From a virus: a stretch of DNA of 64,000 nt. Where the stretch lies: the IMG/VR virus record IMGVR_UViG_3300048762_000248, positions 54,568 through 118,567 of that record; one strand, given 5' to 3'. Below the pieces are notes generated by a model. It was not told the origin of the DNA. It made no database searches and saw only the letters and a program-made list of their open reading frames with translations. This document shows, piece after piece, positions 26,710 through 35,315 of this stretch. The stretch's first letter is position 1. Each line of letters starts with the position of its first letter. Made by a program: the position numbers and the translations under genes.

Positions 26710-26786
26710 GAGGTAGTAGATTAGTGGCTCAAATCCCCGGCCCTTCAAGCCGGAAATCATGGGTTCGAATCCCATCTACCTCACCA
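26710..26786 (+). tRNA. tRNA with anticodon UUC (Glu-type); anticodon loop CCUUCAA, so C33
   Basis: Acceptor GAGGTAG/CTACCTC. D-arm GATT-AGTGGCTCA-AATC. Anticodon stem CCGGC/GCCGG. T-arm ATGGG-TTCGAAT-CCCAT. Ends A-CCA. Confidence 0.6.
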
Positions 26787-26840
26787 AATTTTGTGGTTAG
26801 GAGTTAGGTTCTCAAAATTCATGTCCTACTAAATAGTAGT

Positions 26841-27560
26841 ATGGAACGAAAAAAGCGTAGTATTATTTGGATAACGCCGATTGAAGAGTTTAATATAATT
26901 GTTGCTACAAGTCAGACCCTAGCCGAGATATTACGGCGACTTGGAATTGCTGCTAAAGCCGGAAATTATAAAACTTTAAAAAGTCGGTTGAAAACAGAAA
27001 ATATAAATGTTGGTCACTTGGCAATTGGACGGTTAGATGCAAATAAAGGGAGGAAAATATCGAGAGATTTAATTCCATTATCAAATGTATTAATTGAGCA
27101 TTCATTATATTCTCGAAGTTTTTTGAAGAAGCGGTTATTAAGAGAAGGTGTTTTACAAAATGTATGTTCGGAGTGTGAACAGACACCAAAATGGAATAAT
27201 AAAATTTTAATTTTGGTACTGGATCATATAAATGGAATTTCGGATGACAACAGATTAGAAAATCTTCGTTTGTTATGCCCAAATTGTAATTCACAAACGC
27301 TAACGTTTTGTGGACGGCATAAACATCGTTCAAATAGATTGTCACGTAAACTATGTGTTAGGTGCGAAGGAGAACTTTCAAAAGGTACAGATGGAAGTTT
27401 ATGTTTAGATTGTTATAATATAAAACAACGGCGAGTAGAGCGCCCGTCAATGGATGTTTTGAAAAATGAAATTTCAAAATCATCTTTTGTTTCCGTTGGA
27501 CGAAAGTATGGAGTTTCTGATAACGCTATTAGAAAATGGTTGCGTAATACAGCGGTGTAG
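26841..27560 (+). CDS. HNH homing endonuclease with a C-terminal HTH, paralog of 35357..36143
   Basis: LVLDHINGISDDNRLENLRLLCPNCN, with a C-terminus SFVSVGRKYGVSDNAIRKWLRN. Confidence 0.8.
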   Translation: MERKKRSIIWITPIEEFNIIVATSQTLAEILRRLGIAAKAGNYKTLKSRLKTENINVGHLAIGRLDANKGRKISRDLIPLSNVLIEHSLYSRSFLKKRLLREGVLQNVCSECEQTPKWNNKILILVLDHINGISDDNRLENLRLLCPNCNSQTLTFCGRHKHRSNRLSRKLCVRCEGELSKGTDGSLCLDCYNIKQRRVERPSMDVLKNEISKSSFVSVGRKYGVSDNAIRKWLRNTAV

Positions 27561-27626
27561 CTCAATTGGTGGAGCAGGAGCCTTTGAAGCTCAAGGTTGT
27601 AGGTTCGAACCCTACCACCGCTGCCA
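27551..27626 (+). tRNA. tRNA-Gln (UUG)
   Basis: Acceptor AGCGGTG/CACCGCT. D-arm GCTC-AATTGGTG-GAGC. Anticodon loop CTTTGAA. T-arm GTAGG-TTCGAAC-CCTAC. Ends G-CCA. Confidence 0.7.
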
Positions 27627-27642
27627 TTTTTGAAAGGGATGT

Positions 27643-27861
27643 ATGAAGCTGATTTGTCAGTGTTGTGATTTTACAAAGGACTTTGTGGACGGTGAAGAAG
27701 CGTTCCAAGCTGGTTGGGATGCGCCGCCGCACTTTACAGGCTATGTGGCATGTGATCTCTGTCCTGGCTCGTTTGTGGTGTTGGGCATCACTAATCGTCA
27801 TGCAGCCGCTCATGAAAAATGGAAGACGGAAGGCCGTCCAAAGGAGTTTCAAATTCCATAA
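27643..27861 (+). CDS. Small Cys-rich protein
   Basis: 72-aa ORF between two tRNAs. Confidence 0.4.
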   Translation: MKLICQCCDFTKDFVDGEEAFQAGWDAPPHFTGYVACDLCPGSFVVLGITNRHAAAHEKWKTEGRPKEFQIP

Positions 27862-27865
27862 ATTT

Positions 27866-27939
27866 ACCGGGTTCGTTTAACGGTAGGACGGCGGTCTCTG
27901 ACATCGCTAATGAATGTTCAATCCATTCACCCGGTTCCA
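27866..27939 (+). tRNA. tRNA-Gln (CUG)
   Basis: Acceptor ACCGGGT/ACCCGGT. Anticodon stem GCGGT/ATCGC with loop CTCTGAC. T-arm GAATG-TTCAATC-CATTC. Ends T-CCA. Confidence 0.65.
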
Positions 27940-27977
27940 CCACTTTTGGTCCGAGCCAATTTATGGTATAATGAACT

Positions 27978-28241
27978 ATGAAACTTTTTTACTGGACGGA
28001 ATGCGAATACGATGCATGTAATCATTATGCGGCGTTTGCCGAAGACGTTGACGAAGCTAAGGCGCTTGTAATCGAGGGTATTCAAAAGTCGTGGGAATCA
28101 GTGAATGAAAATGACACTACTCATGCGGAGTGGATGAAAACACATACACAAAACGAGATCAACAGTTTTTTAAATGATCCAAAATGGTCGTTGACAGTAT
28201 ATGAAGTGAAGCATGGGTTTGTCTCTTTCGGTGAGTATTAA
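27978..28241 (+). CDS. Hypothetical protein
   Basis: 87-aa ORF. Confidence 0.4.
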   Translation: MKLFYWTECEYDACNHYAAFAEDVDEAKALVIEGIQKSWESVNENDTTHAEWMKTHTQNEINSFLNDPKWSLTVYEVKHGFVSFGEY

Positions 28242-28260
28242 TTATGAATTGAGGCACAAA

Positions 28261-28527
28261 ATGGACTTCAAATCTTGCAATACAATTTACGATGTGCGTC
28301 TGGAAAAGCACAAATATGGAAACGGACGTACAGCATTAACTTTGGTGGATGCAAAAACTGGCGAGCAAGTTACTTGCGCCACAGTCAATCTTCATGAGCA
28401 TGAACTTGGTTCAGGTGAAGTGTTCATTAAATTAAGACTTGGAGTGAGAATGAAGGAATGTTGGAATTTTTGCTTAAGAATAACATCGTGGAAGACACCG
28501 GGCGGGAAGTTCCTACCGGTTATGTGA
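28261..28527 (+). CDS. Hypothetical protein (MDFKSCNTIYDV...)
   Basis: Frame of ORF 28213..28527, trimmed to an internal ATG. Confidence 0.35.
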   Translation: MDFKSCNTIYDVRLEKHKYGNGRTALTLVDAKTGEQVTCATVNLHEHELGSGEVFIKLRLGVRMKECWNFCLRITSWKTPGGKFLPVM

Positions 28528-28562
28528 CGGCACGAGTGTGTAAGCTTTTAATTTGAAAGTTT

Positions 28563-33511: not shown

Positions 33512-33525
33512 ATATTGAACATGAA

Positions 33526-33711
33526 TTGGGAGAAAGACAAACTTTATTGATCCTTTGTGGTTCGGTCATTTTTTTCACGATTATCACAATGGGCGTGGTT
33601 TATACCCGTCCAGAAGATACTCAGTTTTATCAAATGTTTTCTACTACCTTAAGTAGCTTTGCCGGTGCGTTGCTTTTGAAGTTGACTGGTAAAAATGGAC
33701 CACCAGATTGA
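33526..33711 (+). CDS. Small membrane protein
   Basis: 61 aa with two hydrophobic helices. Confidence 0.4.
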   Translation: MGERQTLLILCGSVIFFTIITMGVVYTRPEDTQFYQMFSTTLSSFAGALLLKLTGKNGPPD

Positions 33712-34330
33712 CAGATCCCGGAGTGAGTATGGATTATTCCCGACCAGATACAATTACGCTTACTTGGCTTGGCTGCGGTCCAGCCCTGCTGAATTTTATT
33801 GAACGGTGTGGCCGGTCTCGACCTAACCTGCTGATGAACTCAGAACAGTACATGTACATTCAGCAGAATATGCGTCAGAGACAAGATGGGAGTTGGGAAC
33901 GATGTACTCCAGGCGCAGCGTCGATATCGGTCTGAAGGTGGCGGAACAGATCCTCGGTTTCGAGCCGATCTACCACACGACGCTTGCGAATGATATCAAC
34001 ATCACAAGACATCGGTTTTAGGTGCTTGACAAGGTTTCAGAGATGTGCTAGTATAAATAATAGAGCCGAAGATCGGCAGGAGAATGCAATGAACATCAAT
34101 ACGTTCAAATTATCGCCATCGTCATTATCGCCTAGTTTGGTGGTATTGCCGTTGCCGTCTCCTTTCCTTAGTTTGCTGCTATCCTAACGGACGCAGCGGC
34201 AATCCACCAAAAATTTAATATTTGTGCGTTTTTCAAGACGCATTGTGGGCTGCATTCTGAGCAGCTAGAAAACGGTATCAGAACCGTATAACGAATCCGC
34301 AATGCGTCATGATGGACGTACAAGTTTTTA

Positions 34331-34404
34331 CGGGGCGTAGCTGGAAGGTCAAGCCCGTGGCCTGGGACCACGAGATTGGAGTTCAATTCTCCACACCCCG
34401 ACCA
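34331..34404 (+). tRNA. tRNA-Pro (UGG); anticodon loop CCUGGGA, so C33 and G37
   Basis: Acceptor CGGGGCG/CACCCCG with one C-A mismatch. D-arm GCT-GGAAGGTCA-AGC. Anticodon stem CGTGG/CCACG. T-arm TGGAG-TTCAATT-CTCCA. Ends A-CCA. Confidence 0.55.
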
Positions 34405-34415
34405 TTTTTAAGTTT

Positions 34416-34494
34416 CAGGACGTGGGCTAATTGGGAAGCCGCCTCATTCGGATTGAGGACATTTATGAAGATTCGACTTCTTCCGTCCTGACCA
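34416..34494 (+). tRNA. tRNA-Pro (CGG)
   Basis: Acceptor CAGGACG/CGTCCTG. Anticodon stem CCTCA/TGAGG with loop TTCGGAT. T-arm GAAGA-TTCGACT-TCTTC. Ends A-CCA. Confidence 0.55.
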
Positions 34495-34512
34495 AATTTT
34501 TGAAGAGGCGTT

Positions 34513-34848
34513 ATGAACATCACGACATATGTGAAAAAGAATTACGATAAGTTGCCGAAGTCTACATTCAATGACCAGGAGTTAGTCGTAGTATTGCAGA
34601 TGCAGAACGAAGATTATGGTTATGGAAATCATTCCTATTCTGGTGTAGGTATTGATCGTGATGGTAAGATCTTTTATTGTTTTTCGTCTGGATGTTCTTG
34701 TACGGGTAATTGTGGTATCACTGAAGCGCATGGTCATGACACCACGCTGAAGAAGGTTGAAGTGGACGGACAAGCGTTCGATTTGAAGTCCATCAATGGC
34801 GCAGTGCTGAACTTTGAAGCATTGCAAGTTGATTTTCGTGATTATTAG
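34513..34848 (+). CDS. Hypothetical protein
   Basis: 111 aa. The ATG lies 18 nt after the tRNA CCA. Confidence 0.45.
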   Translation: MNITTYVKKNYDKLPKSTFNDQELVVVLQMQNEDYGYGNHSYSGVGIDRDGKIFYCFSSGCSCTGNCGITEAHGHDTTLKKVEVDGQAFDLKSINGAVLNFEALQVDFRDY

Positions 34849-34982
34849 AAAGGGTTGTATGAAAAAGATCACATTGAGCGAGTTGAAATTGCTGTGTGAC
34901 GCTTATGATTTGGATAATGGTAAGATTTAGTTGTAGACGGACGACCGTCGAAGATATTTGACAATAGAATAGTTTTGATTGT

Positions 34983-35061
34983 AGCCGGGTGATGCAATTG
35001 GGTAGACATCCAAAGCTCAGAACTTTGGTTTATGTGGGTCCGACTCCCATCCCGGCTACCA
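34983..35061 (+). tRNA. Class-I (short variable arm) tRNA with anticodon CAG; isotype unclear, since the anticodon is Leu-type but lacks the long arm
   Basis: Acceptor AGCCGGG/CCCGGCT. D GATG...CATC. Anticodon stem CAAAG/CTTTG with loop CTCAGAA. Variable region TTTAT. T-arm GTGGG-TCCGACT-CCCAT. Ends A-CCA. Confidence 0.55.
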
Positions 35062-35227
35062 AGTTTGTGCGTTTCGGATGGTGGAAAGGCATACGCTAGG
35101 GTACGTGCGAAAGCGCTACTCCCTTAGTCATTTTGAAATGGAATGGCCGCTGGCAGAAGTGAAAGAAATCTTTGGGAGTTCGAGTCTCCCTCCAGAAAAC
35201 TTACACATAGACGCACATAAATTGCAC

Positions 35228-35315
35228 GGAAGCGCACACCGATTGGCGACGGGGATTGACCTGAACTCAATTGCACCGCAAGGGCTTGGAGGTTCGATTC
35301 CTCTCGCTTCCGCCA
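35228..35315 (+). tRNA. tRNA-Ser (UGA), class II; anticodon loop CCUGAAC, so C33
   Basis: Acceptor GGAAGCG/CGCTTCC. Anticodon stem ATTGA/TCAAT. Long variable arm. T-arm GGAGG-TTCGATT-CCTCT. Ends G-CCA. Confidence 0.6.

Follow-up and report, generated by a model that had tools for sequence, protein, structure and literature searches.

Uridine 33 is regarded as nearly invariant in transfer RNA (tRNA) and as the foundation of the U-turn in the anticodon loop. The molecule has two U-turn nucleotides, at positions 33 and 55, each the second base of a 7-nt loop. What, then, should be made of a phage tRNA array in which several genes carry cytidine at position 33 (C33)? The array lies in a 64,000-nt stretch of viral DNA (positions 54,568 to 118,567 of IMG/VR record IMGVR_UViG_3300048762_000248; hereafter the window), for which an earlier note made from the nucleotide sequence had listed six tRNAs with C33. 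We find that C33 is real, firmly in five of these genes and probably in the sixth, tRNA-Ser(UGA) at 35228 (genes are designated by their start or position in the window).

Six C33 tRNAs in one array

Six of the 22 tRNA genes in the array have C33 and all of the remaining 16 have U33 (16/16), as had been claimed. For the five C33 genes called by ARAGORN the predicted loops equal those of the earlier note (Table 1), and the Rfam tRNA covariance model places C at position 33 with top posterior probability in 26710, 28563, 29750, 30347 and 34331. The two predictors thus agree for four genes, with 28563 called by Rfam only and 35228 by ARAGORN only. Every ARAGORN-called anticodon stem consists of 5 bp with all standard pairs, consistent with the unambiguous stems reported earlier, and each of the six loops is 7 nt long, has a pyrimidine at 32 and a purine at 37 (R37), and has C in place of U33 (6/6). 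A register artefact was considered and rejected, since two predictors agree and all anticodon stems are perfect.

The C33 genes otherwise resemble ordinary tRNA genes. Five of the six exceed the Rfam RF00005 gathering score of 29 bits (42.1–66.4 bits), the exception being 35228, which fails the tRNA model and gives only a sub-threshold tRNA-Sec match (34 bits) in Rfam. U8, G18G19 and a UUCRA T loop (R, purine) are kept in the five ARAGORN-called C33 tRNAs, except for C8 in Ser-UGA, and 28563, inspected by eye, has U8, a D-loop GG and a UUCAA T loop. CCA is encoded in all 22 genes of the array. The C33 genes are clustered, comprising six of the 11 tRNAs between 26.6 and 35.3 kb vs none of the 11 elsewhere (p = 0.012). 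The least certain member, Ser-UGA, has a U33 paralogue, Ser-CGA at 42475; the two genes are identical over the 26 nt of the 5' half, both show C8 and an unusual D arm, and they differ in anticodon (UGA/CGA), position 33 (C/U) and variable arm.

Table 1. The tRNA array of the window and the tRNA genes discussed in the text (window coordinates)
Feature	Position	Strand	Calls and remarks
tRNA array	21845..48854	+	22 tRNA genes: 20 by ARAGORN, plus 21845 and 28563 by Rfam
tRNA-Glu(UUC), loop UUUUCGC (U33)	26628..26702	+	8 nt upstream of the C33 Glu-UUC gene; paralogue of the Glu-CUC backbone
tRNA-Glu(UUC), loop CCUUCAA (C33 at 26743), CCA encoded	26710..26786	+	ARAGORN; Rfam RF00005 66.4 bits
tRNA-Glu(CUC), loop CCCUCAA (C33 at 28595), CCA encoded	28563..28637	+	Rfam 42.1 bits; no ARAGORN call
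tRNA(CAU), elongator-Met-like, loop CCCAUAA (C33 at 29784)	29750..29829	+	ARAGORN; Rfam 57.5 bits
tRNA-Val(UAC), loop UCUACAC (C33 at 30381)	30347..30424	+	ARAGORN; Rfam 61.9 bits
tRNA-Pro(UGG), loop CCUGGGA (C33 at 34362)	34331..34404	+	ARAGORN; Rfam 46.1 bits
tRNA-Leu(CAG), U33, T loop UCCGACU (C55)	34983..35061	+	Rfam alignment GGGUCCGACUCCC; orthologue L272:12708 has UUCGAGU
tRNA-Ser(UGA), loop CCUGAAC (C33 at 35261), C8, weak D arm	35228..35315	+	ARAGORN only; least certain of the six
tRNA-Ser(GGA), U33, T loop UCCGAAU (C55)	41625..41721	+	Orthologue L272:19579 has UUCAAAU
tRNA-Ser(CGA), loop CUCGAAA (U33), C8	42475..42566	-	Paralogue of 35228
tRNA-Gly(UCC), T loop UCUGACU (C55, U56), D loop without GG	48063..48136	+	Divergent; below Rfam gathering score

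C33 and C55 in related phages and other arrays

Relatives of the window phage were retrieved via the neighbouring ligase gene and a conserved 201-aa open reading frame (ORF), giving 66 distinct tRNAs from loci L235, L236, L238, L239, L272, L273 and a few further loci, and orthologues were recognised by common acceptor stems and gene order. C33 occurs in 1/66 of these tRNAs vs 6/22 in the window (Fisher p = 8e-4). The earlier description of a systematic C33 subset, as opposed to a stem shift, is correct. The orthologues of the C33 tRNAs carry the same anticodons. The most direct comparison is offered by Glu-CUC, whose closest orthologue (L272:1882) has the same stem strand CGACC and the loop CUCUCAA, leaving a single T-to-C difference, at position 33; the Glu-CUC orthologues in L236 and L239 are likewise U33. 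The orthologue of Glu-UUC (L235:11390) has the same acceptor stem GAGGTAG, with the loop CUUUCAA and a different anticodon stem-loop. All CAU orthologues with the acceptor stem TGCGGTA (L236, L238/L241, L250) read CUCAUAA; L239 and L244 have Met-CAU tRNAs with other acceptor stems but this same loop, making five distinct relatives in total, and a metagenome scan with a CAU-tRNA orthologue pattern yielded 28 loci of which three were true orthologues, all U33. About 24 of the L243–L270 loci, some of them on 0.1–1 Mb contigs, match TGCGGTATAGNTCAG...CYCATAA without a tRNA called by ARAGORN. The Pro-UGG orthologues L272:11278 (same acceptor stem, CGGGGCG) and L273:2700 both have UUUGGGA. For Val-UAC, the orthologues in L235 (UUUACAU) and L238 (UUUACAC) are U33, whereas that in the closest relative (L272:4291, Rfam 60.8 bits) reads CCUACAA and has C33 in common with the window.

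Because the orthologues in relatives have U33, C33 is, on this comparison of sequences, a derived state of the window lineage, with at least four origins after the split from L272 and one before. The orthologue comparison that the earlier note had proposed thus shows a recent, derived and parallel change within one lineage.

Position 33 is accompanied by the second U-turn nucleotide. Three U33 or divergent tRNAs of the array have C55 (Table 1), and in the two with L272 orthologues, Leu-CAG and Ser-GGA, C55 is derived relative to L272. Across the conserved uridines 8, 33, 54 and 55, U-to-C changes amount to 10/80 in the window vs 1/228 in the relatives (p = 8e-6); at conserved non-U sites there is no difference (4/120 vs 8/342, p = 0.52). 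On the window branch, polarised changes are evenly matched in direction (T>C 8 vs C>T 7, A>G 6 vs G>A 6; AT>GC 14 vs GC>AT 16), and the GC content of the window tRNAs equals that of the relatives. With the window at 42% GC and the substitutions balanced, GC or T-to-C mutation bias was rejected as the cause of C33 here.

A wider survey of other arrays, from phages and bacteria, covered about 1,100 tRNAs, the loci being fetched via one tRNA-Glu stem-loop pattern. Among tRNAs of viral loci that were not selected by the pattern, the C33 rate is 2.1% below 50% GC (n = 288) and 10.7% above, so that the window, with 27% C33 at 42% GC, is an outlier against the 2.1% (binomial P = 4.6e-6). The C33 fraction increases with the GC content of the locus (Spearman 0.63, p = 9e-6) and C33 is over-dispersed among arrays (P = 0.0016). 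It is enriched at anticodons with C36 or a purine at 35 (R35), and in GC-rich arrays reaches 36–42% in Glu, Thr, Ala and Val tRNAs vs 0–7% in Lys, Cys, Trp, Ile and Asn tRNAs. C55 was confined to arrays with at least two C33 tRNAs (14/367 vs 0/463, p = 1e-5, 44 arrays), and the association holds inside GC strata (p = 0.045 and 0.058). The replacement of U33 is almost exclusively by C: among 560 unique viral tRNAs there are 50 C, 2 A and 0 G at this position. In the window, among the 560 viral tRNAs and among 289 genome-locus tRNAs, those with C33 equal or exceed those with U33 at U8, G18G19, the T loop, R37 and stem pairing. No enrichment of a compensating G-C pair at 31–39 was seen in C33 tRNAs, and C33 in the tRNA-Glu of a locus showed no link with C33 in its remaining tRNAs. 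A Leu-GAG tRNA with the loop UCGAGAG recurs among the surveyed arrays.

The Glu-UUC stem-loop is itself widespread. Searching IMG/VR for it with either base at 33 returned 111 loci (74 C, 37 U), and the C33 stem-loop CCGGC-CCUUCAA-GCCGG was seen in phage tRNA-Glu genes with at least 19 distinct backbones. In a family represented by 46 IMG/VR contigs, with five sequence variants and always C33, the gene lies between the portal and head-morphogenesis genes of a phage of about 45 kb. At L043 (7557-7717) and 45 other IMG/VR loci, including human-microbiome samples, this widespread phage group has at that place a cassette of tRNA-Glu (C33), tRNA-Leu (CAA) and sometimes tRNA-Gln. A scan of bacterial genomes with the C33 Glu pattern gave 120 matches, of which 87 are chance matches outside tRNAs; the C33 Glu stem-loop is found in lone tRNA-Glu genes on genome-assembly contigs of Acidobacteriota, Myxococcales, Armatimonadota and others. 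An identical lone C33 tRNA-Glu(UUC) is present in five Acidobacteriota species genomes (L126, L164, L180, L202, L212), and closely similar C33 tRNA-Glu genes in three Myxococcales/Deltaproteobacteria genomes (L122, L152, L183). C33 may thus be native to a core tRNA of some phyla.

Dense arrays on contigs of Planctomycetes metagenome-assembled genomes (MAGs) and on one Acidimicrobiaceae contig have 18–50% C33 among their other tRNAs. The Planctomycetes MAG contigs (L116, L163, L171, L187, L219, L231; 70–767 kb) have 8-kb stretches with 13–39 tRNAs, no encoded CCA and C33 in 18–26% of the tRNAs besides the query Glu; these stretches may be the main tRNA sets of the cells or integrated mobile arrays. 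The Acidimicrobiaceae locus (L224, DAHWQF010000047.1, 8001-12419) holds 17 tRNAs in 4.4 kb by ARAGORN, nine of them C33, with Pro, Met and both Glu loops the same as in the window and C55 in 5/16 scored.

Explanations for C33

The explanation of C33 in the window phage that we favour, and to which we give slightly less than an even chance, is that the six tRNAs decode normally with a tolerated U-turn cytidine that became fixed after a lineage-level change of selection on the U-turn uridines. A T-to-C transition at position 33 would have been fixed in the window phage lineage, the genes would be expressed, and the mature RNA would keep C in a working loop. A pyrimidine at 33 may be enough for a usable anticodon-loop geometry, with precedents in eukaryotic initiator tRNAs, where C33 is natural (PMC5041475), and in yeast tRNA-Leu(GAG), where it is natural with minimal effect on function (PMC13492127). 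C33 would be one symptom of changed selection on both U-turn uridines, not six tRNA-specific adaptations. We posit that a U-turn C is mildly deleterious and tolerated, commoner under GC pressure and easier to bear where codon–anticodon pairing is strong. Since the window has 42% GC and its relatives have U33, this explanation would require a lineage-specific change of selection, in which a lineage- or host-specific factor relaxed the need for U or favoured C, either as relaxation after a host change or as positive selection.

Several observations weigh against tolerance as the explanation. The relatives keep U33 at similar GC content and tRNA redundancy, and simple relaxation thus needs a lineage-specific cause. 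GC content partly confounds the association between C55 and C33, several of the tests have small counts, and the survey is biased by single-pattern retrieval, with an Rfam check of three outside loci (L224, L073, L272) that confirms the calls at the tRNA-call level only. Finally, three of about 30 polarised window-branch substitutions (five orthologue sets) fall at position 33, more than at the average site; this excess, by our own estimate and on small numbers, hints at positive selection over mere tolerance.

Such an excess would be expected if C33 were positively selected because a host defence or toxin (a HEPN-type anticodon nuclease, Cas13 cutting at 33/34 or another loop binder) needs the U-turn uridine. 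The earlier note had raised evasion of anticodon-loop nucleases. Under this reading the tRNAs of the host would be destroyed and those of the phage spared, and U55 to C would be a parallel escape from a T-loop enzyme. We consider it a possibility of some weight, although an unlikely one. Comparable cases exist: mycobacteriophage C1 tRNAs resist VapC by single substitutions near the cleavage site (van den Berg 2023, PMC10264068), and T5 tRNA-Lys with U39A/A41C resists AriB of the PARIS system (PMC12409363). Once activated, Cas13a cleaves mainly at the first nucleotide of the anticodon, with a preference for uridine in small loops (PMC11042736), and PrrC and RloC are listed as cutting 5' of the wobble base, which is the junction after U33. 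Escape would also fit a C33 that is derived, has arisen in parallel in four genes or more, is specific to the lineage and does not follow from mutation bias, and it would fit the adjacency of U33 and C33 copies of tRNA-Glu(UUC). Yet in the only published U33C test that we found, the substitution in a tRNA-Glu stem-loop left gamma-toxin cleavage unaffected (PMC2275089), and escape predicts neither the GC correlation nor the bias to strong codon boxes, nor C55. C33 tRNA-Glu also occurs as a lone gene on bacterial genome contigs, looking like an ordinary chromosomal copy. Avoidance of a general U-specific RNase was rejected, as U at other unpaired positions is unchanged, not depleted (24.2% vs 24.4%). 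Since C33 tracks GC, is biased to C36/R35 anticodons and co-occurs with C55, a tolerated variant would explain the data better than six tRNA-specific escapes.

The joint behaviour of positions 33 and 55 can also be read more strongly, as a heritable array state with C at the second base of both 7-nt loops that is kept by a dedicated mechanism and was recently entered by the window phage. Candidates for such a mechanism would be a loop-position-specific deaminase that restores U, or selection by nucleases (33/34, 54/55) or modification enzymes that grip the U-turn. We regard this as improbable, and as less probable still a matching of the anticodon stem-loops to the synthetases and modification enzymes of a host that has C33 tRNAs. 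The latter would account for the identity, over 17 nt, between the window Glu-UUC stem-loop and that of the lone bacterial tRNA-Glu genes described above, for the different stem-loop of the L235 orthologue and for the 18–26% C33 outside the query Glu in the Planctomycetes MAG arrays. However, those bacteria and arrays have 60–67% GC vs 42% for the phage, Glu-CUC departs from the orthologous gene in L272 by a single base on a kept stem, without replacement of the stem-loop, and the change from U55 to C is left unexplained. Very unlikely, in our estimate, is C-to-U editing, in which genomic C at 33 and 55 would be deaminated to U by a phage or host tRNA cytidine deaminase, making the mutations silent and free to drift with composition. 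A precedent is Methanopyrus kandleri, in which most tRNA genes have C8 and U8 is restored by the deaminase CDAT8, and C8 is present in two window Ser tRNAs. Editing would also fit the facts that only C replaces U, that C33 and C55 co-occur by array, that the two positions come second in loops of homologous structure and that their frequency follows GC like a neutral site. No deaminase domain was found in the approximately 50 window ORFs scanned, however; the anticodon-dependent bias of C33 implies that the decoding system sees C, and the natural C33 tRNAs of yeast and eukaryotic initiators are unedited.

The remaining alternatives are less probable again. Degeneration of poorly functional copies in a redundant array has in its favour that some array tRNAs are divergent (Gly-UCC at 48063 and both C8 Ser paralogues) and that Glu-UUC is present in two copies. 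We give it very little credence, as five of the six genes score 42–66 bits with intact stems, T loops, G18G19, R37 and CCA, only 35228 being marginal, and as decay would give A33 or G33 and damage at other invariant sites, neither of which is seen. Selection at the DNA level, with C33 protecting a tRNA gene from a homing endonuclease of the array, or a shift of the anticodon frame by C33, we hold to be the most improbable of all. Three of the four HNH genes do lie within about 320 bp downstream of a C33 or C55 tRNA (26841 after 26710, 35271 after 35228, 41945 after 41625), but the tRNA-Ser at 39843 beside the HNH gene at 39865 is unchanged, and four C33 tRNAs are without an endonuclease neighbour. 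A shifted anticodon with U34 as the turn nucleotide was rejected, because it does not fit all six loops alike and conflicts with the identity features of the tRNAs. Non-standard decoding, a further suggestion of the earlier note, is not supported: the loops are of 7 nt, none of the anticodons (UUC, CUC, CAU, UAC, UGG, UGA) reads a stop codon and the orthologues share them, genetic code 11 leaves ORFs as long as 840 aa open, and acceptor, discriminator and variable-arm features read off the genes fit the standard anticodons.

Genomic context and comparison with known systems

The window, which derives from a 79 kb Logan contig of run SRR35911405, has 42% GC and encodes T4-like baseplate genes (gp5, gp6). 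An 840-aa window protein with major-vault-protein (MVP) domains has 38% identity to proteins of uncultured phages of 462–735 kb, and metagenomic contigs of 69, 370, 375 and 400 kb show synteny for the gene order OmpA, ABC transporter, ligase and tRNA array. Synteny with large contigs, the baseplate genes and the vault-domain protein together mark the window, as judged from gene content, as part of a huge phage related to metagenomic phages of 370–735 kb. Megablast returned no close phage relatives in GenBank, and distant blastn gave generic tRNA matches only; a search of IMG/VR with peptide patterns from the ligase and from the MVP-like protein found no relatives. The nearest ligase homologues have 83–92% identity, on contigs without usable DNA spanning the C33 tRNAs.

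Genes for homing endonucleases of the HNH and endonuclease VII (Endo VII) types and small ORFs are scattered between the tRNAs of the array, with the four HNH genes at 26841, 35271, 39865 and 41945. Such genes are very dense in the window as a whole, which has two LAGLIDADG domains, three Endo VII and four HNH genes; beyond the HNH genes, homing-type genes are positioned at 4958-7336 (-), 16668-17417 (-), 10856, 19283 and 45369. One LAGLIDADG domain sits in a 792-aa ORF and is possibly an intein, and an intein-like insertion is present in the ABC ATPase of the relative L235. Within the array are also an FkbM-type methyltransferase (40587-41426, +) with a weak TRM5/TYW2 match, a KOW-motif protein (38613-38951, +) and a GNAT acetyltransferase (36213-36668, +); the methyltransferase and the KOW protein are both kept in L272.

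The RNA-repair and ribosome-rescue functions that the earlier note placed beside the C33 tRNAs are upheld only in part. The ligase (23769-24935) is of the ATP-dependent DNA ligase type (PF01068, phrog_114), and no RtcB, Pnkp or RNA ligase was found among the window ORFs scanned; a gene with an RF-1 domain is present, which is not a demonstrated rescue factor. This short release-factor gene (22906-23683, +) lies directly upstream of the ligase as two ORFs split at CGG AGG GGT CTT TGA CGT, a site consisting of a Shine–Dalgarno-like GGAGGGG followed by CUU UGA C, which is the well-known site of the prfB +1 frameshift. The fusion made by the +1 shift runs on into the downstream GGQ-containing ORF and matches positions 107–319 of the release factor 1 (RF1, prfA) profile over that of RF2 (176 vs 123 bits), without domain 1, as in PrfH. 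It carries a PPT tripeptide, which we take to stand at the place where RF1 has PxT.

Full-text searches for C33, U33C and position 33 with phage tRNAs or arrays found no description, and neither "C33" nor "position 33" was found in the full text of two array surveys (PMC4758250, PMC6409571). C33 rises to 10–50% in some phage and bacterial arrays, together with C55; if the finding holds up, the need for uridine at both tRNA U-turns would depend on lineage. Natural matched pairs such as 28563 and L272:1882, differing at 33, let the role of U33 in decoding, modification and nuclease sensitivity be measured, and position 33 offers a concrete site for the debate on why phages carry tRNAs. Pipelines for tRNA annotation should not penalise C33.

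The window resembles the bacterial and mobile tRNA array units described previously (Tran et al. 2016, PMC4758250; virus clusters, PMC6409571) in its kind, these being dense arrays of 20–40 tRNAs with some non-canonical features; it is in such arrays that C33 and C55 are found clustered. It also shares with the VapC- and AriB-resistant phage tRNAs that single changes in the anticodon stem-loop affect several tRNA species of a genome within phage arrays. In those cases the changes lie at or near a mapped cleavage site (36–41), with the host tRNA as reference and with cleavage data, whereas the change in the window is at the U-turn nucleotide 33 together with the T-loop U-turn. The papers on anticodon-loop mutations of phage tRNAs (PMC10264068, PMC12409363) do not mention position 33. 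Row 153 of supplementary file 1 of PMC10264068 lists a mycobacteriophage tRNA-His (GUG) whose loop, UCGUGAU, has C33. The entry is marked as unmutated, so the tRNA of the GC-rich host may have C33 too.

Among tRNAs that depart from a universal uridine, Candida tRNA-Ser(CAG), which has G33 (cited in PMC5041475 and PMC13492127), likewise tolerates the departure, with consequences for decoding; there, however, the base is a purine, by which the loop is distorted and which is linked to reassignment of a codon, whereas the window has pyrimidines only and no sign of reassignment. The C8 genes of M. kandleri resemble the window in that many tRNA genes of one genome have C at a universal U, but they concern position 8 and a known editing enzyme, as opposed to positions 33 and 55 with no deaminase among the ORFs scanned. 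Closest in base are the eukaryotic tRNAs in which C replaces U33 in a functional molecule. The loop of 29750 (CCCAUAA) is that of the vertebrate initiator tRNA, whose mark is three consecutive G-C pairs in the anticodon stem. This run is missing from 29750, which has the stem CUGCG/CGCAG and an ordinary T loop (UUCAAAU); a real example of the eukaryote type, with GGG/CCC, is found on the giant-virus contig L031. Eukaryotic initiator tRNA-Met and Saccharomyces cerevisiae tRNA-Leu(GAG) are each single tRNAs that are special-purpose or non-essential, whereas the window has C33 in six elongator-type tRNAs for five amino acids in one phage.

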